Below, piece after piece: positions 43,956-60,690 of a stretch of DNA of 64,000 nucleotides. The notes under the pieces were generated by a model. It saw only the letters and a list, made by a program, of their open reading frames with translations, had not been told where the DNA came from and did not search any database. A program made the position numbers and the translations under genes. The stretch comes from a virus (lineage: Duplodnaviria; Caudoviricetes), in IMG/VR virus record IMGVR_UViG_3300009031_000368, positions 32,001-96,000 of that record; one strand, given 5' to 3'. The number at the start of each line of letters is the position of its first letter. Position 1 is the first letter of the stretch.

Positions 43956-45455
43956 TTACGGCAGGGTGACGTCGATTACGCCATAGAATTCAGGACGCAA
44001 CAGCTTCTTAGCATATCGCATCTTGATTCCCTTACGCGCCGAGAAGTCGTCAGGATCCTCAAGGGTCTGAGTCAGCTTCATCGGAACGTATGGTGCATAC
44101 ACGTAACCTGAGTCCAGGTAACTCTGTCCCTTAAGACCAACCAGGATTGTAGTCTGGTTAGCCATCAGCGGATCGATATATACCATCATTCGGTTAAACA
44201 GTGTACCGACTGCCTGCACGCCGAAATCACTTGACATCGGGCCATAGCTTGGCTGACGAATATGGGTCTGCATACCGTCGCCACCATATGGATTCTGCAC
44301 ATTCTTGGCATAAACCAGCGGTGCAAAGTCACCATGAGTAGTCAGCTGTTGCATATACGCGGCAATCTTTGGCGAAGTAACGATCCAGTTGGCAGGTGCG
44401 CGCATCGAACCAGTATGGATTTGAGCCGACATGGTGCTGATAACGGTCAACAGACCACGGATTCGGTTAATCTCATTCGGATCATCGCCACCACCAAGGT
44501 CATAACTGTCGGTGTATGAAGCATTGCTGATCAGGTCATTGATGATTTCTCGATCAACTTCAAGCGCCATCTGATTACTGAAGATGGCAACCAGTTCCTG
44601 CTCAGCATCCAGTCCATACATGGACTTCATGTCTTCCTGAGCGGTTGAACTCCATCGCGCCCGCATGCGTCGTTCAGTCGCCTTCACAACCTCCATGCTG
44701 ATTTCGATGTTGATCTCAGGAACCTGATCGTTCATTTCATTGTTGTACCAATAGACGGCAACAATGGTTGCACCATCGGCTGGCGCATCGGTGAACTTCA
44801 GGTTACTGACTCGTCCAGTCGTATAGTTGACGGTTCCGGTACCGGCTCCACCGAATGAGCCAGAACCATCGTCGACAACAACCTGAGTAGAATCATCCGG
44901 GTTGGTTGCCGTAATGGTAACGCTGATACCATTGGTGCTATCCAGTGGTCGCACCGGCTTCCAATTGAGTGTCGCATTCAGTCCTAGACCAGCTCCACCG
45001 TAATTGGTACCATCACCTGTTCCGACTGACTCTTCATCAATCTTTTCAGACGAATAGTTGGCACTGAAGGTCTGGATAACCTTATCGCCAGCAGTAATGG
45101 AACCCTTGGTGGTCGCATACTTGGCTTCGTAATAGAACACGGCGCCGTATGGGCCAGTCATCGGCTGAATTGACACCAATTCGTTAGCAATCAGGTTGGG
45201 GAAAATTCGCCTAATGGCCGGGAACAGATACTTGGTATAGGTAGCAATATTGCCAGTCAAAGTATCTTCATTCAGTGCGCCACGCACGAAGTTATACTGA
45301 TTGTTTAACAGAATGGCGGTTGCATTCCGCTTGTGTGGATCCTTAATGTTGCCAACCAGTGGTGCCCAGTTGCGCACAACCCTATTGACCCAACTATCAT
45401 CCTGAATTGTCCCGCGCACATCTTCCTGCATGGGCTTTCGATTTCTTGCTTGCAT
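43956..45455 (-). CDS. major capsid protein (T4 gp23-like) with an inserted beta-domain
   Basis: A.ELVSIQPMTGP.G.VFY, A.ERRMRARWS..AQEDM..MYGLDAEQEL, E+DREII, YAPYVP, RYAK. Confidence 0.97.
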   Translation of the reverse strand: MQARNRKPMQEDVRGTIQDDSWVNRVVRNWAPLVGNIKDPHKRNATAILLNNQYNFVRGALNEDTLTGNIATYTKYLFPAIRRIFPNLIANELVSIQPMTGPYGAVFYYEAKYATTKGSITAGDKVIQTFSANYSSEKIDEESVGTGDGTNYGGAGLGLNATLNWKPVRPLDSTNGISVTITATNPDDSTQVVVDDGSGSFGGAGTGTVNYTTGRVSNLKFTDAPADGATIVAVYWYNNEMNDQVPEINIEISMEVVKATERRMRARWSSTAQEDMKSMYGLDAEQELVAIFSNQMALEVDREIINDLISNASYTDSYDLGGGDDPNEINRIRGLLTVISTMSAQIHTGSMRAPANWIVTSPKIAAYMQQLTTHGDFAPLVYAKNVQNPYGGDGMQTHIRQPSYGPMSSDFGVQAVGTLFNRMMVYIDPLMANQTTILVGLKGQSYLDSGYVYAPYVPMKLTQTLEDPDDFSARKGIKMRYAKKLLRPEFYGVIDVTLP

Positions 45456-45474: not shown

Positions 45475-48400
45475 TTAATCGTCAAGCCGGTCTGGAAATT
45501 GGACCGGATATGCACCTTTTCCGCCCGATTGTGCTATTAGCTCATCTAGCGGTGTTGATGTTGACTCTGTAAAACTTCTTCTTCCAAATGTGTCTTCTTC
45601 GACACTTCTTTCGTATCCTCTTCGCACACGCTCCCGCGCCTTCTCGGCCGCATACGGATCGTGTCTTGCATTTGAACTTTCTGCTAGAATTCTATCTATT
45701 TTTGATGAAGGTGCGCGTTCGCCGATAAGAGATGTTAATTTTTTACCATTTTTCATCTTATTGACGATTTCTGTTGCCCGGTTGGCACGCTCTTCAAGGA
45801 TTTCAACAGCACTCACATACTTTTGAAGTTCCCTTTCATACTGCTCCTTCATCTTTTCACTATTTTCCTTCAAAGCCTTAAGTCGTGAACCATACTTGCC
45901 TGATTCAATCTTTGCGCGTTCATGTTCTGCCGTCAATGCATTGATTCGGTCTTTTGATTCCGACAACAACTGCCTGGTTTCTGTAACTTCACCAGATAGT
46001 TTTAATGCTCTCGCCTCAGATTCAGTCAACCGCTTAACTTCGGCATTAAGACGATTCAATTCAATCTTTGAATCCCTTAAACAATCCTTACTGGCATCAA
46101 CGGTTGTCCTGGCTTCAGCCAATTCAGATCTAATGTTGGCAATATACTGGTCCTTGGCATCTACCAGTTTGGCCGTTTGGATTTCCACTTCCTTGAGGCG
46201 CTTAAGCTCACTGGATGATTCGGTCAGTAAATCCTTTAGACCTTGAACGCTTGCCGCAACTTCCGATACTTCGGCAAATTCGGCCTTCAACTGTTGGAAT
46301 CCTTCCAGCTGTGTCTTTGCCTTTTGAAGAATTCCACGAAGCTTTTCAACCTCTTCCGCCTTGGCTGATAACGATTCAATTTGATGCTTCAGTTCAATGT
46401 TCTCAACCGCAGCCGTATCGACAGGAATCTTGCCGATTTCCTTTGCCAGACGTTCTGCCAGTTCGTCAATCTCCGGTAATTGCATCGTATTAGTTACGCT
46501 TCCGGCAATTAAATCAACCATCGTGTCCTTGTTTTCATACATTGAAAACTTTTGAGCCAGATGATACTTGATGACTGCCCGTCGTCCAAATTCAACCGAT
46601 TCTGCCAGCTGATTCTTTGCGTCAGCCAGTTCGCATTCAATCCTGGCACCATTCTGCTGTTCACGCTTTACGCTGTTTTCCAAATCCTTAATGTATTCGT
46701 TGGAATCCTCTGAAAAGATGAATGGTCTGATCAGCTTAACGATACCTTCAATGGCCCGCTTAGCGCCAGCAACCGATGGATCTTCCAACATCGATTCACG
46801 CAGGTTGTCGGTCAGCTCATCCTTTGCCGCAACGACATCTTCAATCAATCGCCTGGCATAGATTTCCTTTATTCGCGACGTCTCGGTCCTTATCGCATTA
46901 CTGACCGCTTCCTCAACATCTGATTTGGAATACTGCTTATCGGTTACCGTTTGTTGAGTCGTTTCCAATAGGAACTTGTTGGCTTCCGGAATCGCGCGCT
47001 CAATCTCTTCAGAAATCGTTTTACCAATACGTTTCCTTACTTCCTCAACTGATGAACCGGCGATGCGCTCACTTTCAGCAAAAACATCCGGGTAAGCGGT
47101 TTTTGTGGCTGGATCGTAAACGACATCGAAGGTCATTAACCTGTAATCGTCACCAACAGATTCCGTTCCATCCTCAAGCTTGGTGGTAGATCCGTAACCG
47201 CGTGAACTGATACCAGGGTCTATGCCGGCTTCAATTAATCCAGTCAGAATCTTACCGGTTGGTGTTGGCAGAATTTCAGCTTCGCCGATGATTTCATTGC
47301 CTTCAATTCTTAAATCAGTGATGACGTGACTGACACGCTGAAGCCTTGTTTGCCCATCGCTGTTACCGGTCCAAAACGTATGGCCGTTTTGCTCCATGTA
47401 GAAGTTACCGTGATCAACCGATAGACAATAGATGCGACCAGCATGGTGCTCTTCTTCAATCTTCATGAATCTCTGATCAAGCCAAATGTGCTTGGAATTC
47501 GAGAAGTGCAACTGGTAAAGTGGCACCTTATTTTCTGCTTTGATGATCCTACCGGCGAATTCGTAATCACCATCAGGTTCAATGACAGAAATGCTACCAG
47601 CACGCCCAGTCTTAATCAAACACTCATGAAGGTCTTTTATAAGCTGCTCAGATACAGTGAAGACATCGTTCCTGATATTGGTGACATTTCCATGTCGTAC
47701 CGACTCAGCCTTCACTTCCTTAAACGTCTTTCCCGAATCTCTCCATTCACCATTAACCGTATGGTCATCGGTTCTGCTGTCAACAATTCTGCCATCACCG
47801 ATGGAAAACCAAAACAGCAATTCAGATAATGGACCCGGGCCTAGATTTTTGATCTCTGACGGAATATACTTATTGTAGCAGTCGCCAAGCGGCTTCAGAT
47901 AGTTGTAAAGCCTTGCGTCGTATGTCATATAACCGTCAGCATACTTACTCCATTGAATCTCAGGCGACATCTTGCTTAAGACTTCATCATAAATATACTT
48001 GGTTGACCATTCATTCTTTTGGCAAACAAACACAGCATATCCGCTATGGTTTTCCGACCTGCAACATCCTTCCGCGAGATAAATACCCATAAATGCTGCA
48101 AACACGTTTGCATCTATTACAAGGTCTTTTGACGCATCAGTTTTTGTTCCACGTAGTCCCTGTATGGCAGGCAACGTAAATGTTTTCGGTGATTCTGGAT
48201 TCCATTGAGCAGTTTTCGGAATTGCGGAATGACCATATGAAGCCCTGTTTGTAAAGATGGTTTCAGAAGTAACATACTCCTCAAACTCTCTCTTTTCACC
48301 AGGTCGTGTAACAAGAAGATTCCTGTGACCGGGAGTAAAAGTAGAATCGATACTCCTACCTTTAAAATGGTACACCGGTCCATCGTATGGCTCGTCGATG

Positions 48401-48759
48401 ATGGCATTCACGGTAGAGAGAACGGCTTTGCCATTTTTGCGGGACCAAGCCTTTTCACCTACGCCGATATCCCTGAACTTTTTCCACCCACTTTCAGTAA
48501 GTACTTGAAATTGTTCACTTTTCAGACAAGGATGGTCAAGTTCCCCCAGCAATTTCCTACCTTGCATTTTCTCTTCAAGTCGCTCCAATTCGCGCTTCCA
48601 GAGTGGTAACTCATATCGGCGATTGTTTTCGGTCGGCACACCGGCCAATGCGAACAATCCGCGCAGGTAGAGCTTCCTGTTACCATTGGCGGTAGCTTCA
48701 CCAAGCTCTGATTTGAATTTAAACGGAACAGTATCTATAAGAAGTCGTGGCTTTGTCAT
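45475..48759 (-). CDS. prohead protease (T4 gp21-like) with an intein, fused to a long coiled-coil scaffold; start at MTKPRLL
   Basis: N.N.R.Y, GELDHP, VSH.IT, G.AEIL.TP.G, GISSRGYGS, FDVVYDPA; heptad-rich C-half. Confidence 0.92.
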   Translation of the reverse strand: MTKPRLLIDTVPFKFKSELGEATANGNRKLYLRGLFALAGVPTENNRRYELPLWKRELERLEEKMQGRKLLGELDHPCLKSEQFQVLTESGWKKFRDIGVGEKAWSRKNGKAVLSTVNAIIDEPYDGPVYHFKGRSIDSTFTPGHRNLLVTRPGEKREFEEYVTSETIFTNRASYGHSAIPKTAQWNPESPKTFTLPAIQGLRGTKTDASKDLVIDANVFAAFMGIYLAEGCCRSENHSGYAVFVCQKNEWSTKYIYDEVLSKMSPEIQWSKYADGYMTYDARLYNYLKPLGDCYNKYIPSEIKNLGPGPLSELLFWFSIGDGRIVDSRTDDHTVNGEWRDSGKTFKEVKAESVRHGNVTNIRNDVFTVSEQLIKDLHECLIKTGRAGSISVIEPDGDYEFAGRIIKAENKVPLYQLHFSNSKHIWLDQRFMKIEEEHHAGRIYCLSVDHGNFYMEQNGHTFWTGNSDGQTRLQRVSHVITDLRIEGNEIIGEAEILPTPTGKILTGLIEAGIDPGISSRGYGSTTKLEDGTESVGDDYRLMTFDVVYDPATKTAYPDVFAESERIAGSSVEEVRKRIGKTISEEIERAIPEANKFLLETTQQTVTDKQYSKSDVEEAVSNAIRTETSRIKEIYARRLIEDVVAAKDELTDNLRESMLEDPSVAGAKRAIEGIVKLIRPFIFSEDSNEYIKDLENSVKREQQNGARIECELADAKNQLAESVEFGRRAVIKYHLAQKFSMYENKDTMVDLIAGSVTNTMQLPEIDELAERLAKEIGKIPVDTAAVENIELKHQIESLSAKAEEVEKLRGILQKAKTQLEGFQQLKAEFAEVSEVAASVQGLKDLLTESSSELKRLKEVEIQTAKLVDAKDQYIANIRSELAEARTTVDASKDCLRDSKIELNRLNAEVKRLTESEARALKLSGEVTETRQLLSESKDRINALTAEHERAKIESGKYGSRLKALKENSEKMKEQYERELQKYVSAVEILEERANRATEIVNKMKNGKKLTSLIGERAPSSKIDRILAESSNARHDPYAAEKARERVRRGYERSVEEDTFGRRSFTESTSTPLDELIAQSGGKGAYPVQFPDRLDD
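47362..48528 (-). mobile_element. intein, 389 aa, with LAGLIDADG homing endonuclease
   Basis: Starts Cys (CLKSEQFQVLT..GWK) and ends HGNFY....TFWTGN; +1 extein Ser; FMGIYLAEG and WFSIGDG motifs; excision restores HP|SDG. Confidence 0.93.
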
Positions 48760-48818
48760 ATTAATTTCCATATTTTTGCGCAAAATGTAACCTACAATCA
48801 CGCACTACATCTAACGAT

Positions 48819-51558: not shown

Positions 51559-53292
51559 TCAATATTGTTTCTTTTGCATTTCGCTTCGCAATTCCATCAT
51601 CATAGCCCTTGATTTCCTTACATCTCGGCCAACGACATCCATTCGCTCTGTTAATTCGCCTTCCGCGCGCTTAATTCTTGCATCAAGCAATTTACTGACA
51701 TTCCTTTCAGTCAATTGTCCAGCGTTTCGCTTCGTCGGCTTAACCGGCTTACGGAATGTAATGCTTTCTTCACCATAATCACCGCCGCTGTCCTGATTAT
51801 ATGCGTCTTCAATCTCAGCCTGTTGTTCCATTCCGAATGATTGGGCCTTAGCCTGCGTCTTCCCTTCGTCAATGATTTCATTCCTACGCTGTTTCCTGAT
51901 TTCCACAATCTCGTCATCGGTAAACTGCATGACGTTTTTCAAACACCATGTCAGCGATGTGCTTTCAAGAAGCGATTGTATCGTTTGCGCCTTGGCCGCT
52001 AGTGCTTCAATCTGAGACAGTTCATAAATCATTGTTGGCTTTGTCATTGCCAATGTCCATTCGGATTCGTCTGGATCTTTGTCAATAGCCAATAGGTGTG
52101 CGCGACAGACCTGTTTAAATCCAGTCATGATTTCACGCTGGATATTCATCACAGACCTGGCAAAGTTTACATCGGCATGGCTTAAATGCTTTTCTGGAAT
52201 ATCGGCACCGAATCCCAAATATGCGGCAGGAACCTTTAATGCACCTTGCAGTGCCTCTCTAAATCTATCGATATCTTCAGTTCCAGTCCATCCCAATCCA
52301 CCAATCGTTTCAATCCTTGCAGAATCCTTGCCATCTCGTGTGGGTATCCATAGATTTTCGTTCATCGACAACGGGGTAGCGCGCATATCGAGCCCACCCT
52401 TTTCGACATTGTAAAACTTCTTTTTACTATACTGTTGCTTCAATCTATTGATATATTGTCTGGCTTCAGATTCCGGCATACTGCCAACATCGATAAAGAA
52501 TGCAAGCCGCTCTGGACTTCGTTCCAGCCGATACATCAAGCTGGCATCCTCCATCATGGCAAGACGCTTCCATACCGTCCTGGCCGCTTCAACGGCACTT
52601 ATTCCATATACAGATCTGATGTGTTTGGCGCGCAATCTCCAATGGACTATTTCCCATGGCTTATACAGTATCGCACCAGTTGCCGTTATAGCCTTATCGC
52701 GCGAAGCATTGGTATTGACAAAATATTCCATGTCGGTGTCGTTGAATTCAAACCGCATATTGGTATCTTGTATATATCCCAACGTCGTTCCACTAACATC
52801 CATAATCCTTCGCATGCTGGCAGGCGGGAGATAGTTTATGCCAATGACGCCAGTTTCATCAATAAGTATTTCTCCGTATGAGTTCCCCATGTGTGCCAGT
52901 GTCCTTGCCAATGGCCATATATCGGCTTCAATTTCAAGAGCACCATGTAGGAGACCGATCAATTCAGCCTTTGTCCAATCGTCTTCCGTAACGACCCACA
53001 TGCATATACCACGATTGTAATCCGGTTGTGATATATCGTTGGCATATACGTCAAGTGCCGTTTGGATGTATGAAAAGTCATCCATCGCTTCATAATCTCG
53101 ATACCTGGCATGAAGATCGGCTTCGACTTCCAGCATCGGCCTAATCAACGAATAGTTTGATTCAGATACTCCACCGCTACCATCTACACCGAATGTGCCG
53201 CTAATCGGTGACTTAGATGAGCCGGAAATGCGCGAATCCTTCTTACCGAAATACTGTTTAAATTTATCAGATATATTGTTGGACCAACCCAT
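51559..53292 (-). CDS. portal protein (T4 gp20-like), 577 aa
   Basis: YR.YEAM, IVHWRL, YG.S.+E.AR..WKRL.MMEDA..MYRL.RSPER..F.IDVG, ALKVP...L. Confidence 0.96.
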   Translation of the reverse strand: MGWSNNISDKFKQYFGKKDSRISGSSKSPISGTFGVDGSGGVSESNYSLIRPMLEVEADLHARYRDYEAMDDFSYIQTALDVYANDISQPDYNRGICMWVVTEDDWTKAELIGLLHGALEIEADIWPLARTLAHMGNSYGEILIDETGVIGINYLPPASMRRIMDVSGTTLGYIQDTNMRFEFNDTDMEYFVNTNASRDKAITATGAILYKPWEIVHWRLRAKHIRSVYGISAVEAARTVWKRLAMMEDASLMYRLERSPERLAFFIDVGSMPESEARQYINRLKQQYSKKKFYNVEKGGLDMRATPLSMNENLWIPTRDGKDSARIETIGGLGWTGTEDIDRFREALQGALKVPAAYLGFGADIPEKHLSHADVNFARSVMNIQREIMTGFKQVCRAHLLAIDKDPDESEWTLAMTKPTMIYELSQIEALAAKAQTIQSLLESTSLTWCLKNVMQFTDDEIVEIRKQRRNEIIDEGKTQAKAQSFGMEQQAEIEDAYNQDSGGDYGEESITFRKPVKPTKRNAGQLTERNVSKLLDARIKRAEGELTERMDVVGRDVRKSRAMMMELRSEMQKKQY

Positions 53293-53304: not shown

Positions 53305-55329
53305 CTATTCATCAAATCCGAATATTATTGGTTGCTGGAATGGCTCACGCTTTGTTCTATTGGATGGATTTCGCACACCGATGACCCATGAATCATCTTC
53401 ATACTCTTCACGGCTAAATGAACCAGAGATGATGCCCATCGGACGAGATGGAGGATTTTCGACAAGACTGCAAACGACACCGGATGCCGATACGGCAAGG
53501 TCATCGTGTCCTTCTGTTCCATCAATATTAAGATTCGGATGATCAATGATTCCAGTGTTTGGATCCAGTTCAAGGTTTATCAATTCTCTCCTTAATGGAG
53601 AATATGGATAAACGATCAATCTGTCTTCATAGATGGCTGCTTTAATCCGTTCCAGTGCTCTCGACTTACCAGATTCACCGCTAATCAGCGAATGCTTGAT
53701 GCCACGTTCCTCAAACTTTTGCCGCGTTTCTAAATGATGATAACTATCCGTTGTGCAATGAACGATATTGAATCCATGTGCCTTAAGGTCATATATGAGA
53801 GCGCGCAATGCTCCCGGTGTAATCTCACCATTCTTTGGTGCAATTACTTGCATGATGAAGTCAATATAGATCTCTGGCGAATATTCGATATACTCCGTTC
53901 CATCTGGCGCAAGCTTGACGACATCGATCCATCTTGAAATATGCCCAACACAGATGCCGGCCGGATCTTGTCGGCCAGCTGAAAGGTCGATATGGGCATG
54001 ACGTGGTGCATTTGGATTAATGTGGGGGATGTAAACCTTTTCCTTATATCCGCCTTTTAATCTACGCTCAGCCTGACGGCAAAGTAGGTGCCATTCAAAG
54101 TCGCCCGATTCACCACAAGCCCATGTTTCAACGGTGAATGGATGATATAGCCCTTGTTTGAAACAGTTGTCGATCTTGTCGCGCCGGCCAATAAAGGTCT
54201 TTGTCGGCATCGTGCTGACACCAGCATGGTCGCGGATTGCAAGATCTAGATCGTTTTCAAAGACCTGTCGTAGGAATGGATGGTCTGGAACAGGAACTAT
54301 TTTGGCAAATCTATCCGGCCCTGATATTTCTTTCCTTACATGCTCTACTTCATCATTCGTTAGTATTCTATTTGAACACTGGTCGTCGCCGACCAATACG
54401 TAAAATCTCTCCTTGGGATATTGCTCCGGTATAAGTTCCCATTTTGCATACTCTTTTACCATTATTTTGTTTTTAGAATCTCTCGCAGCCTTCACTCTTT
54501 CATCCGTGAATGATCCAACGACATTCTTGGATGAAGCAAGTATCATGATCCCAGGTTTAATACCCGTTCCAGTAAATCGGCTTCTGATACGAGACAATAA
54601 TGCGGTATATTGTTGGTAGGCGACTCCTTTGTCTGCACGGGCTGATCGTTTACCTTCATAAAAGTTAGCTTCGTCAAGAGCTCCTCCGTAAACGTTTCTA
54701 CCAAGTAAGCCTGGTGATCCTGGAGATGCTGTAATGATTGATATATTTTTGGGGAAGTCTATAACGCCAGCTGATACCTTGTATCCGAGCTGTTTAAAGT
54801 ACGGAGATGATTCCAAGTTTGCAATTATGTCTGCAAAAATACCGCGTCGAACCTGTTGTAAGTCGACCGACAATACACCAAATGCAATGTTTTTACCATC
54901 CATCAATCCAAGCTGCCGTTGTGGATTTGCCAGGCAATATATCTGATACACCATGTAAGGAATTGCAAGCGCGCAGTATGTGCTTTTCCCTGTCCCGACA
55001 CCGCCAGATATAATTGCTTCATAGTAGTCGCCTTCAAACATTTCAATCAAATTTTCGATTAATGGTTTGTATGTTCCGGTGCATACTTCACCAAAATAAT
55101 ATGGATCTGAATAAAACGTCTTAGGCGACACCGGCCGTTCAGAATAATGGACTGATTCCAATACATCCAGGATTTCAGATTCACCACCATTATCTAGCTC
55201 GGCAAGTGCCTGCTCCAATACTTCGCGCTCTTCCGGCGAACATGAAGCAATCATGGCCTGAAGCTCTTCAAATTCCTCTTCCGGCGTTTTTACAGATATA
55301 ATCTTACCGTTAAAATCGATTAGATGCAT
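53305..55329 (-). CDS. terL: terminase large subunit
   Basis: Walker A GGVGTGKST, Walker B GGALDE, RNase H-like HIDLS and HDDLA; upstream of the portal. Confidence 0.92.
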   Translation of the reverse strand: MHLIDFNGKIISVKTPEEEFEELQAMIASCSPEEREVLEQALAELDNGGESEILDVLESVHYSERPVSPKTFYSDPYYFGEVCTGTYKPLIENLIEMFEGDYYEAIISGGVGTGKSTYCALAIPYMVYQIYCLANPQRQLGLMDGKNIAFGVLSVDLQQVRRGIFADIIANLESSPYFKQLGYKVSAGVIDFPKNISIITASPGSPGLLGRNVYGGALDEANFYEGKRSARADKGVAYQQYTALLSRIRSRFTGTGIKPGIMILASSKNVVGSFTDERVKAARDSKNKIMVKEYAKWELIPEQYPKERFYVLVGDDQCSNRILTNDEVEHVRKEISGPDRFAKIVPVPDHPFLRQVFENDLDLAIRDHAGVSTMPTKTFIGRRDKIDNCFKQGLYHPFTVETWACGESGDFEWHLLCRQAERRLKGGYKEKVYIPHINPNAPRHAHIDLSAGRQDPAGICVGHISRWIDVVKLAPDGTEYIEYSPEIYIDFIMQVIAPKNGEITPGALRALIYDLKAHGFNIVHCTTDSYHHLETRQKFEERGIKHSLISGESGKSRALERIKAAIYEDRLIVYPYSPLRRELINLELDPNTGIIDHPNLNIDGTEGHDDLAVSASGVVCSLVENPPSRPMGIISGSFSREEYEDDSWVIGVRNPSNRTKREPFQQPIIFGFDE

Positions 55330-57516: not shown

Positions 57517-58044
57517 TTAAATTGATGGTTTGATTGAATCGGTGACTTTATCGGCTTGAAGAACTGTATCTTGAACTTCAATATCTGATTCAACAGTAAC
57601 TACAATCATCCGGACGCCCGGATTTGTTCCATATCTCTTACTGATTGTAATATTTACGACCTGATTATCATCCTTAATGACTACACCTTTTATTGCGTCC
57701 TCGACAAGTTTACAAATATTAGAGCAGTCAGGAGTAACTATTGGTAAAAGCTCATGTTTTAGCGCGGCCTCGTGCTTCTTTTTAGAAAATGAAGTCGGTA
57801 TAGGGAATGTCGCTTCTATCCGGATATGAACCGCGCCAACATATGGTGGTCGTACCGTCTCACCGTTCTGGTACGCTGTTGCCGCATAGAATCTCACTTC
57901 AGCCTCACGGCTCACCGTTTCTGGATCCGCGTATGTTGACACAAATTTTCCGACACGTCTAAATTTTGGAGACTTCTTTCCTGCCGGTTTCCCTGGAACA
58001 AAAATATCAATCAATGTTTGCTGCAACTGATGGCACTCCTTCAA
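57517..58044 (-). CDS. rusA: RusA-family Holliday junction resolvase
   Basis: VPG.P..K..P.F, PD..N..K..EDA..G....DD.QV....ISKRY. Confidence 0.88.
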   Translation of the reverse strand: MKECHQLQQTLIDIFVPGKPAGKKSPKFRRVGKFVSTYADPETVSREAEVRFYAATAYQNGETVRPPYVGAVHIRIEATFPIPTSFSKKKHEAALKHELLPIVTPDCSNICKLVEDAIKGVVIKDDNQVVNITISKRYGTNPGVRMIVVTVESDIEVQDTVLQADKVTDSIKPSI

Positions 58045-58417
58045 TCTCTATATCGCAATGTGTTATGATGAAACCATCATCGATAACGTTATCTGTTGTG
58101 GAACCATATCCGGATAACCTGGCGCTGATTGAATATATGGGCTGTCGTTGTTCAAGAATCTGATGTAAAATATTTCCTTGTGGTGTCGCAACAATTTCGA
58201 TATCTGCGACCACTATATCATCGTCATCAACACACATCTCCGTTACACGGTGTGATACTTCGCCCAGCTTCGAGTCTGACGCTGAACCAGTATAGATACG
58301 ACCATACATTGGAAATATTGCCCGGCCGATGGCACGTTCAACGACTTCTCTGGGATATATGTTGCCATTACGGGTTGGCTGGCCGGTTTTCATTCCTTTC
58401 ACATTACATATCTTCAT
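58007..58417 (-). CDS. prohead-protease paralog lacking the ELDHP His motif
   Basis: PTRNGNIY, VSHRVTE, EIVATPQGNIL and SGYGSTT align with the protease at 45475-48759. Confidence 0.75.
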   Translation of the reverse strand: MKICNVKGMKTGQPTRNGNIYPREVVERAIGRAIFPMYGRIYTGSASDSKLGEVSHRVTEMCVDDDDIVVADIEIVATPQGNILHQILEQRQPIYSISARLSGYGSTTDNVIDDGFIITHCDIEIEGVPSVAANID

Positions 58418-58941
58418 TTACTATCCCGGTGTTCTTTTCTAACCTGTACCAGTAATTGAATTTCTGGCTCAGACAATCCAGTATTCTCTCTAAGATAGAC
58501 AGCATATTGTTCGTCGTCATACCCGCGACTATTGGCATATGATGCAAGCCAAGACACTGTTGTTATTTGTCGCTCTCTCAATATTGAATCAATATCCTCA
58601 TCAGAAAACTTCATTATATTCTTTAACATCCATTGGCTCGAAAGCCTGTCGGCTGCTACATTTCGTTCGTTTTGCAATTTCTCGATTTGTGCATTATTCA
58701 AAACCAGATACTCCACAATAGTCTTTTTGAACTCATCTTCATTGAAGTCATTCATTTCAACATATTGTGCAATCAATTGCGCGGCCATGGTGATGCTGTT
58801 AGACATCTGACTAGATAACCATTCCGGTTCAGGAAATCTGTCACCGTCGATATCTTTCAATACATAATTCCGCATATCACGAACACGGCCCATTTGGATA
58901 TCGATCAATTCACTCATTAAAGTCTTAACGTCCATTATCAT
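58414..58941 (-). CDS. protein containing a portal C-terminal (crown)-like segment
   Basis: QIEKL...SSQWMLKNIMKFSDEDIDSILRER versus portal QIEAL...SLTWCLKNVMQFTDDEIVEIRKQR. Confidence 0.65.
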   Translation of the reverse strand: MIMDVKTLMSELIDIQMGRVRDMRNYVLKDIDGDRFPEPEWLSSQMSNSITMAAQLIAQYVEMNDFNEDEFKKTIVEYLVLNNAQIEKLQNERNVAADRLSSQWMLKNIMKFSDEDIDSILRERQITTVSWLASYANSRGYDDEQYAVYLRENTGLSEPEIQLLVQVRKEHRDSK

Positions 58942-59107
58942 TTCTCCTCTTAATCGCCATTTTTAAGTTGTTAAGATAATGCTTCGCCTGAACATCTGAC
59001 AGACTACCAACATCTATAAAGAATGCCAATCGTTCTGTAACCGGCATACGCTTCATTCTGACTTTTCCATCTGTTCCAATCGTCTTACAATATTTCATAA
59101 CTGTCAT
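58925..59107 (-). CDS. 60-aa protein containing a copy of the portal clip-region segment
   Basis: ERLAFFIDVGS identical to the portal, followed by A..Y.N.LK. Confidence 0.7.
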   Translation of the reverse strand: MTVMKYCKTIGTDGKVRMKRMPVTERLAFFIDVGSLSDVQAKHYLNNLKMAIKRRNDNGR

Positions 59108-59673
59108 CCCTTTCCATATCTGGCTTCAATCGCCAATCTGCCTAGCTCAACTTCATCATCTGACATCATCACGGTATCTGATTCACCAATCTCGTTATAG
59201 GTTATTGGAACCGGTGGGCTAAAAACATATCCGGCATCCCGTTTAGCTTCCGCCTCTACTTTTGACTGCAACTGTTTCAACAGATCTTTAATGGTCTCTG
59301 TTGGTATTTCTTTCATCGCTGCTTCAATAGCCGCTTGCGCCGATGCCATCTCTTCATCGGTAAACCGTCTGGCGCTATTGGTGCCCATCCGGCTCTCAAC
59401 CGTATACCATTTTGGTGTATCGGTTAAGCTGTCACCGGTCGTTGTTTCAGACGTTGTGCCATCTTCAAAGAATGACGCATCATCGATCATTGCACCATAC
59501 TTATGGATGCCGCGTAACGGTTGAAAAGAACATATCGGCGTTGCAACGATTCTAACATGACTGATCTGACTACATCCATGGATGCATCCACCTGGAATAA
59601 ATATTGGCCATGCACTGGTCTGTGTCGTTATCGGACATCCGCACCAACAATTACCTACGTTTTTACTCTCCAT
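59104..59673 (-). CDS. hypothetical protein with a terminase Walker-B-like segment; start corrected to MESKNV
   Basis: LRGIHKYGAMIDDASFFE versus TerL LLGRNVYGGALDEANFYE. Confidence 0.55.
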   Translation of the reverse strand: MESKNVGNCWCGCPITTQTSAWPIFIPGGCIHGCSQISHVRIVATPICSFQPLRGIHKYGAMIDDASFFEDGTTSETTTGDSLTDTPKWYTVESRMGTNSARRFTDEEMASAQAAIEAAMKEIPTETIKDLLKQLQSKVEAEAKRDAGYVFSPPVPITYNEIGESDTVMMSDDEVELGRLAIEARYGKG

Positions 59674-60157
59674 CACACTCGTCCTCTGATTGATCGCAAC
59701 ATTCAAATGTGTGACAGATGCTGTTGACATAAATATTACTTTTGCCTTTTTCTGTAATGATGTAAAAGCTTGGGATAGTCTTTTGTTCAAAGTATGCCAA
59801 GCGCATCGTTACACCTGTTTCTTGCTGAATATCGGAAATATGCTTCAATACTGTTTCAACATTAGGGACGACACGGAATCCAGTTAAACGGCTGTCTGGA
59901 TTAACGAAAGCATTCATGTCAACAGTATCGCCATTTTCTTTAAATGCGAAGCCATTAACCGACGAAACGACTACACTTGGAGTCCACTTTCTGAAAGTAG
60001 TGTGGTGCATGATATCACTGTGTTCAACCATACCGCCAAGCCTGTCTTCCAGACTATCCGACACATATGTTTCCAAGTCTTTAGTCACCCGAGCCACATC
60101 CATTTTCAGAACACCGATATCATCAATAATAAGGTTGACATCACTGACTGTCTTCAT
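59663..60157 (-). CDS. hypothetical protein, tandem paralog B
   Basis: SVNGFAF, VPN, ETGV and EQ.T shared with its neighbour. Confidence 0.7.
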   Translation of the reverse strand: MKTVSDVNLIIDDIGVLKMDVARVTKDLETYVSDSLEDRLGGMVEHSDIMHHTTFRKWTPSVVVSSVNGFAFKENGDTVDMNAFVNPDSRLTGFRVVPNVETVLKHISDIQQETGVTMRLAYFEQKTIPSFYIITEKGKSNIYVNSICHTFECCDQSEDECDGE

Positions 60158-60690
60158 TGTCCGTCTCCATTCGCAAACCAGTCTAAATCGTTAGACTCTT
60201 CAGAATCGCACATACAATTTTCACAATGGTCTTCATAAAATGAAACGTATAACTTATTACGTTCGCCATTCTTGTACACATGAAACCTGTTAACCGTCTG
60301 TTGTTCACAACGGGCAAGCATCACTTCCACACCTGTTTCTTCAGAAATTGCCCTTAAATGTTCCATAACAACATCATGGTTTGGCACAAGCCGTTCTCCG
60401 CCTGTTTCCTCTTGAAAATTAGGACCAATATCAATCGTACCACCATCATCAGTAAATGCAAATCCATTAACAGATGTTACTGCAACGTACGGCCTATATG
60501 GAAACTGAACGTCATGAACATCGCTATCCTGATAGAAATTATCTGTATGAAATACAGGCATACCGATTCTAGCATCCAATTGACTATCGATGTACTCTGA
60601 TAACTGCTGAATCTTTGTATCAATATCAAAACTTAGTGTGGCAGTCTGCCGGATTAATTGTTCCACTTCTTTTGCCATTACCATAAACAA
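60154..60690 (-). CDS. hypothetical protein, tandem paralog A
   Basis: Same shared motifs as paralog B. Confidence 0.7.
   Translation of the reverse strand: MFMVMAKEVEQLIRQTATLSFDIDTKIQQLSEYIDSQLDARIGMPVFHTDNFYQDSDVHDVQFPYRPYVAVTSVNGFAFTDDGGTIDIGPNFQEETGGERLVPNHDVVMEHLRAISEETGVEVMLARCEQQTVNRFHVYKNGERNKLYVSFYEDHCENCMCDSEESNDLDWFANGDGQ

Follow-up and report, generated by a model that had tools for sequence, protein, structure and literature searches.

The window analysed here is a 64,000-nt stretch of DNA, bases 32001-96000 of one 231,714-bp contig (G+C content 44%) that represents a 232-kb phage. The source is an uncultured T4-type jumbo phage from groundwater metagenomes. Its head-module genes lie on the minus strand in the order 245-aa gene, large terminase TerL (53305-55329 (-)), portal (51559-53292 (-)), a 287-aa and a 307-aa gene, an 1108-aa S77 prohead protease-scaffold fusion (45475-48801 (-)) and a gp23-type capsid protein (43956-45455 (-)). 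The 577-aa portal is of the T4 type (Pfam Portal_T4, E 2e-60), and the 245-aa gene upstream of TerL is presumed to encode the small terminase. Two related metagenomic phages, L011 and L013, have the same head-module gene order, and their portals are 44-48% identical to the resident portal.

Four tightly coupled ORFs, with lengths of 189, 60, 173 and 136 aa, form a row that is flanked by conserved genes and belongs to a variable accessory region lying upstream of ssb, of the 245-aa gene and of terL. ORF189 (59104-59673 (-)), at the head of the row, reaches 228 aa when read from an upstream TTG at 59790. The second is a 60-codon ORF, here called mini60 (P0002, 58925-59107 (-)), a truncated paralogue of the portal. 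It is followed by ORF175 (58414-58941 (-)), which gene callers start at 58935 to give 173 aa and whose strong AGGAGA Shine-Dalgarno (SD) sequence lies inside the end of mini60, and by ORF136 (58007-58417 (-)), a paralogue of the prohead-protease core of the S77/gp21 type (PHROG head-maturation protease, E 7e-9), the parent of which is the resident protease fusion. The order within the row is that of the real head module, with portal before protease. In L011 and L013 the TerL-portal-...-protease-gp23 series is present and the whole row is absent; the row is accessory. An earlier note had described mini60 as a mimic of the portal clip. The ORF does not stand alone, however: it belongs with other truncated portal and protease paralogues in a collinear series, and this alters the question to be answered.

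ORFs that all lie on one strand and measure 57 aa or more tile 100% of the stretch 58007-59673, compared with a mean of 16% and a maximum of 73% in 2000 simulations. ATGA overlaps occur at two of the three junctions, and the ORFs of the third, between mini60 and the 173-aa form of ORF175, overlap by 11 nt, with the AGGAGA motif encoded in the last mini60 codons eight bases before the ATG. The codon-usage score favours the annotated frame for all ORFs of the row; for mini60 it ranks no higher than the 3rd percentile when compared with genuine 60-codon pieces read in frame, and the SD of this ORF is weak. Codon 4 of mini60 is a second ATG, which is better spaced to the weak SD AAAGGGA. The same ORF structure was present in 18 metagenome contigs, the ten contigs compared were 99.5-100% identical to the window, and contigs of four further sequencing runs showed no differences and no indels. 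None of the sequencing runs in which the stretch occurs is registered as an RNA run. The phage is known from one clonal population. In one 752-bp contig (L015:1-752), codons 1-77 of ORF175 run directly into the middle of ORF136 across 80 identical bases, while the protein sequence of the mini-gene part stays the same; the contig represents a row with a deletion or else a chimera made in assembly. A terminator-like hairpin with a T-rich run lies at 59023-59047 (-), over the mini60 codons for MPVTERLAF, and may be there by chance; the scan for promoters and terminators found no more sites than in shuffled sequence.

Residues 17-55 of mini60 align to portal residues 255-291, a segment that starts in the last part of the stem helix and takes in the first clip strand, the tip and the helix of the clip. 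The similarity to the resident portal was found by BLASTP (E 1e-10), by Smith-Waterman comparison against shuffles (z = 18), and by comparison with a profile of 60 portals (hhalign probability 93%, E 2.5e-7). The match to Pfam Portal_T4 (PF07230; E 2.8e-4, 20.2 bits) remains below the 22.9-bit cut-off and spans only profile positions 204-235 of 433, and phrog_23805 and phrog_12349 match mini60 weakly (E 0.01-0.07). The homologue search yielded 120 portals, and of these the resident portal was the best match of mini60. Moreover, both proteins have L263, F266 and S271, residues found in only 3-17% of 108 family members. The closest relationship to the resident portal together with these rare common residues indicates that mini60 is a within-lineage paralogue.

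The two copies are most similar in the 11 codons for ERLAFFIDVGS, located at 59003-59035 (-) in mini60 and at 52480-52512 (-) in the portal, where they encode residues 261-271. A degenerate pattern for this peptide has exactly two matches in the window, and none of 100 shuffled sequences contained one. As the earlier note had read from the codons, six nucleotides in five codons differ and every difference is silent; the helix pattern A..Y.N.LK that it described after the strand is likewise present in mini60. In simulation, six random substitutions in 33 nt are all silent with a probability of ~3e-5. In the following 20 aligned codons pS is 0.98 and pN 0.43, so the silent sites are saturated and the copies separated long ago. 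Such an old divergence combined with silent-only differences argues that the ERLAFFIDVGS strand has been held by purifying selection, and the proposal of protein-level selection on these 11 residues is thus well supported. Recent copying or gene conversion was ruled out, given 6 differences in 33 nt and silent sites near saturation, as was a DNA-level site or RNA element behind the conservation, since the differences sit on the silent positions.

The constraint on mini60 differs in pattern from that on the true portals. Residues E248 and D249, located 12 residues upstream of the strand and invariant in the family, are replaced by K and Y in mini60, and a five-residue insertion follows them. 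The invariant F265 and G270 and the nearly invariant R258 and P260 are kept. Judged from these alignments, E248/D249 have been lost and strand positions that vary among portals have been kept. A recently broken full-length portal would be expected to retain E248/D249, and the pattern fits selection on the strand-helix unit alone. At the level of sequence comparison, mini60 is thus shown to be an old, truncated paralogue of the resident portal that is limited to the opening strand, tip and helix of the clip, and the kept island has been under strong purifying selection; with no orthologue in the protein collections searched, the island could date from the time of a longer copy.

Position n of the window portal corresponds to position n+20 of T4 gp20, the phmmer alignment being gap-free in this region. 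According to Sun et al. 2015 (PMC4493910), the gp20 clip comprises residues 279-358, is built from three strands and helix alpha6, and provides the site to which the packaging ATPase gp17 attaches. From the offset of 20, ERLAFFIDVGS corresponds to gp20 281-291, where the first strand of the clip leads into the tip. Mapping the segment onto a model of the portal had been suggested as a check, and in the AlphaFold2 model of the resident portal (mean pLDDT 78) a helix at 235-257 is followed by strand 262-268, helix 274-289, strands 314-318 and 327-330 and helix 338-352; the segment falls on strand 262-268 and the helix after it, so its placement in the clip was right. The claim that it belongs to the terminase-facing clip region holds as far as the clip is concerned, and the 11 kept residues make up the first strand and not the tip.

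The tip residues N291, M292, R295 and K296 of gp20 are the probable gp17 contacts, and a 24-residue peptide of gp20 288-311 is reported to bind gp17 and inhibit packaging (PMC4493910). Residues 32-55 of mini60 align to portal 268-291, exactly the stretch of this peptide. The suggestion that selection has preserved the terminase interface is, in this form, not supported by the tip itself, which reads S-M-P-E-S-E in the portal and S-L-S-D-V-Q in mini60 and mostly differs at the equivalents of the T4 contacts: at these four positions the portal has S, M, S and E and mini60 S, L, V and Q, i.e., one identical, one conservative and two different residues. The kept helix positions (A, Y, N, L, K) are also family-consensus positions, and fit determinants of the fold as well as a binding surface. 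The partner clip strands 314-318 and 327-330 are missing throughout the row. For mini60, the model stored in the ESM Atlas is of low confidence (mean pLDDT 0.58), and a strand plus helix of 60 residues may not fold alone.

The relationship to the portal extends into the next ORF. A tblastn search of the window with the portal gave collinear matches, portal 240-291 on mini60 and 426-492 on ORF175, in different frames. Residues 82-127 of ORF175 are similar to portal 424-472, the wing-end and crown helices (hhalign E 2.6e-5; Smith-Waterman z = 7.9 against the portal), and this similarity is seen against many portals; the remainder of ORF175 has no recognisable similarity. In this crown island pS is 0.88 and pN 0.22, and 8 of 14 residues persist. 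Profile comparison of mini60 and ORF175 detected neither the wing nor the two clip strands nor the tunnel loop, and no part of the row corresponds to a portal stretch of about 40 residues in which the other two clip strands lie. Since the portal islands are collinear and the ORFs overlap, a programmed frameshift could join mini60 to ORF175, or ORF189 to mini60, into one wingless portal-like protein. We regard such recoding as barely credible, because ORF175 lies in the +1 frame relative to mini60, inspection revealed no slippery site at either junction, and ORF175 has an ATG and a well-spaced SD of its own.

ORF136 is similar to the resident protease (Smith-Waterman z = 12.4), and it has GRIYTG in place of the GELDHP block, so that the catalytic-His motif is lost. 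The motif GYGSTT is common to both proteins, and all six of its codons differ silently. For ORF189, two assignments were tried and rejected. As a fragment of TerL it has in common only a 12-residue Walker-B-like motif (Smith-Waterman z 2.9-3.4), with no terminase match in Pfam or PHROG and no tblastn match; as a portal wing it reached an hhalign probability of 0.2%. ORF189 is also similar to the 245-aa gene (z 6.4, at low identity) and to the C-terminus of the major capsid protein (MCP; z 4.2), and as these similarities cover the same residues, at most one of them can be real. The last 50 residues of ORF189 (59104-59260 (-)) contain GYVFSPPVP...IEARYGK, which resembles GYVYAPYVP...IKMRYAK of the capsid C-terminus; weak alignments of these residues to two further head-module proteins were obtained as well. 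ESM Atlas look-ups with mini60, ORF175 and ORF189 yielded no usable matches, only low-confidence stored models.

The main rival of a retained function is that the row is the decaying remnant of a partial second copy of the head module, duplicated or acquired from a relative, in which mini60 would be an accidental functionless frame. Erosion would explain why the row occurs in one phage lineage only, with no orthologues found, why some 40 portal residues are missing between islands that lie in different frames, and why the invariant E248/D249 and the protease His motif are lost. The low codon-usage score and weak SD of mini60 point in the same direction, as does the 752-bp contig if it represents a further deletion of the row and not a chimera. 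In a pseudogene test each island was found in an intact ORF with overwhelmingly silent substitutions, the two portal islands being in different frames. Although silent sites are saturated, 11 of 11, 6 of 6 and 8 of 14 residues persist in the three islands, full tiling by coupled ORFs was reached in 0 of 2000 simulations, and ORF175 has a strong, well-spaced SD. Phage genomes have a deletion bias, from which loss of non-functional DNA is expected, and we infer that non-functional DNA of this age would hardly have stayed open and recognisable. Simple decay is thus rather unlikely in our view, and mini60 is quite probably a retained coding fragment of the paralogue.

We hypothesize that mini60 is a retained portal-derived small protein that competes for the partner of the clip, either the terminase or the unassembled portal, a reading that we consider plausible, if somewhat short of an even chance. 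The products of the row would be made as separate small proteins, and mini60 would present the strand and the helix of the clip in isolation from the remainder of the portal, notably without the two partner strands. Because these strands are missing, it would dock onto the natural partner of the clip element. One candidate is the large terminase, by analogy with the T4 gp20 288-311 peptide, and the resident TerL would be the partner of the clip-derived mini60; the other is a portal subunit not yet assembled, whose clip is still unpaired. Docking would delay or block portal-dependent steps in the manner of a microprotein-type competitor, and the outcome could be that packaging is timed in the phage's own cycle or that co-infecting relatives are hampered. 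Judged by its sequence, mini60 has the hallmark of such a competitor, i.e., derivation from a larger protein of the same genome and a single interaction element. Competition as a mechanism, in either form, is put forward tentatively; more broadly, its place in a row with cut-down crown and protease copies makes mini60 a probable small regulator of head assembly or a competitor in it.

The closest functional analogue of mini60 is the gp20 288-311 peptide. Both contain the tip and the clip helix and are free fragments detached from the portal ring, mini60 adding the preceding strand. Unlike the peptide, which is a laboratory reagent, mini60 is encoded by a phage, has mostly not kept the T4 contacts, and its binding is only predicted. 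Its relation to the T4-type portals (PF07230, gp20) consists of significant local homology to the clip strand and helix. Unlike these portals, it matches only 33-39 of about 430 profile positions, below the Pfam cut-off, is without wing, stem, tunnel loop and crown, has lost E248/D249, and could not form a portal; on these comparisons mini60 is not functionally a member of the portal family.

Eukaryotic microProteins or small interfering peptides, such as Id and LITTLE ZIPPER, are short proteins that come from the interaction module of a larger protein and are without its other domains. They are expected to act by competitive, dominant-negative binding, and have been described for transcription factors of plants and animals. 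We know of no microProtein derived from a viral portal. The likeness of mini60 to this group is conceptual, its function being predicted only. No report of a phage-encoded portal fragment was found in the literature searched.

As for genomic organization, the closest analogue is gp117 of the giant Salmonella phage SPN3US, a diverged paralogue of the prohead protease in which the catalytic His does not align (PMC5694885). As with ORF136, a jumbo phage carries here a second, diverged copy of a head-morphogenesis enzyme. Unlike the row, gp117 is a single full-size paralogue and not a series of short pieces, and no portal fragment has been reported in SPN3US.

Host immunity offers another explanation, in which cut-down portal and protease pieces, perhaps also TerS- or MCP-like ones, would act as decoys that bind host sensors without activating them. 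The parent proteins belong to conserved classes reported to trigger host sensors: Avs1-4 recognise the portal and the large terminase, Avs11 recognises the portal (PMC12803255), and a 2026 preprint reports, by its title, the activation of CBASS by phage proteases (PMC12991175). The location of the row in an accessory region and the existence of a further TerS-like ORF of 99 aa would agree with such a role. However, Avs sensors bind through extensive shape-complementary interfaces (PMC12803255), of which a strand-helix piece of 60 residues could cover little, and no precedent was found in the literature searched. An immune decoy is thus very improbable. A wider version of the competitor reading, which we consider quite improbable, is that the jumbo phage keeps a dedicated set of micro-paralogues (clip, crown, His-less protease and possibly TerS- and MCP-like pieces) as competitive decoys. 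The targets of the set would be the pattern-recognition sensors of the host or the assembly line of co-infecting related phages, and mini60 would then be the natural counterpart of the packaging-blocking T4 portal peptide.

Of the contacts within the phage packaging motor, the docking of portal and terminase is understood least. To our knowledge, the synthetic T4 portal peptide is the only reagent against it. If mini60 is indeed a free 60-residue element kept under selection, it would provide a natural probe of the portal-terminase contact, and no earlier case would be known of a virus encoding a 'microprotein' that stems from a structural gene. Taken with the crown piece and the His-less protease, mini60 suggests that large phages can put pieces of essential head genes to new use as regulators, competitors or decoys. 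Should it be no more than a remnant, the row around mini60 still records a partial duplication of the head module in a T4-type jumbo phage.

Relatives of the row were sought in several collections. In a search against proteins of 33-105 aa, mini60 found only itself. Among 1.84 billion representatives, ORF175 matched only P0125, encoded on the chimeric or deleted 752-bp contig, and two further proteins, one of 4003 aa whose Pfam matches are scattered and sub-threshold and the other a BACON-repeat protein, both of which were judged compositional artefacts. The protein search with ORF136 returned only itself and P0125. Viral_contigs contained no relatives of ORF175 or of the portal, and the phage record collection gave no DNA match, the matches of mini60 there being full-length portals only.

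Further ORFs of note occur on the contig. Outside the window, an ORF of 99 aa (genome 109527-109826 (-), L016:15028-15327) is TerS-like, with 51% identity to the 245-aa gene over 45 residues (E 2e-8) and no PHROG match; this similarity identifies it as another putative truncated paralogue of a packaging gene. Also outside the window, two adjacent ORFs (genome 106348-107485 (-), L016:11843-12986) are weakly similar to the two ends, N- and C-terminal, of the gp23-type capsid protein (E 0.015 and 0.058), and PHROG profiles give no support to these MCP-like pieces. The row is directly preceded on its upstream side by a tandem pair of ORFs, of 164 aa (59663-60157 (-)) and 178 aa (60154-60690 (-)), which match no family and are paralogues of each other, with 32% identity over 150 aa (E 5e-21).

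The resident protease gene contains a 389-residue insert (47362-48528 (-)) directly after GELDHP, which is absent from the two relatives. The insert begins with Cys, ends with GN followed by Ser, and encloses a LAGLIDADG-like block; its match to Pfam Intein_splicing reaches only E 0.014, and its features suggest that it is probably an intein. The relative L013 has inteins instead in TerL and in the portal, and the portal intein of this relative falls within the stretch of about 40 residues that is without counterpart in the row.
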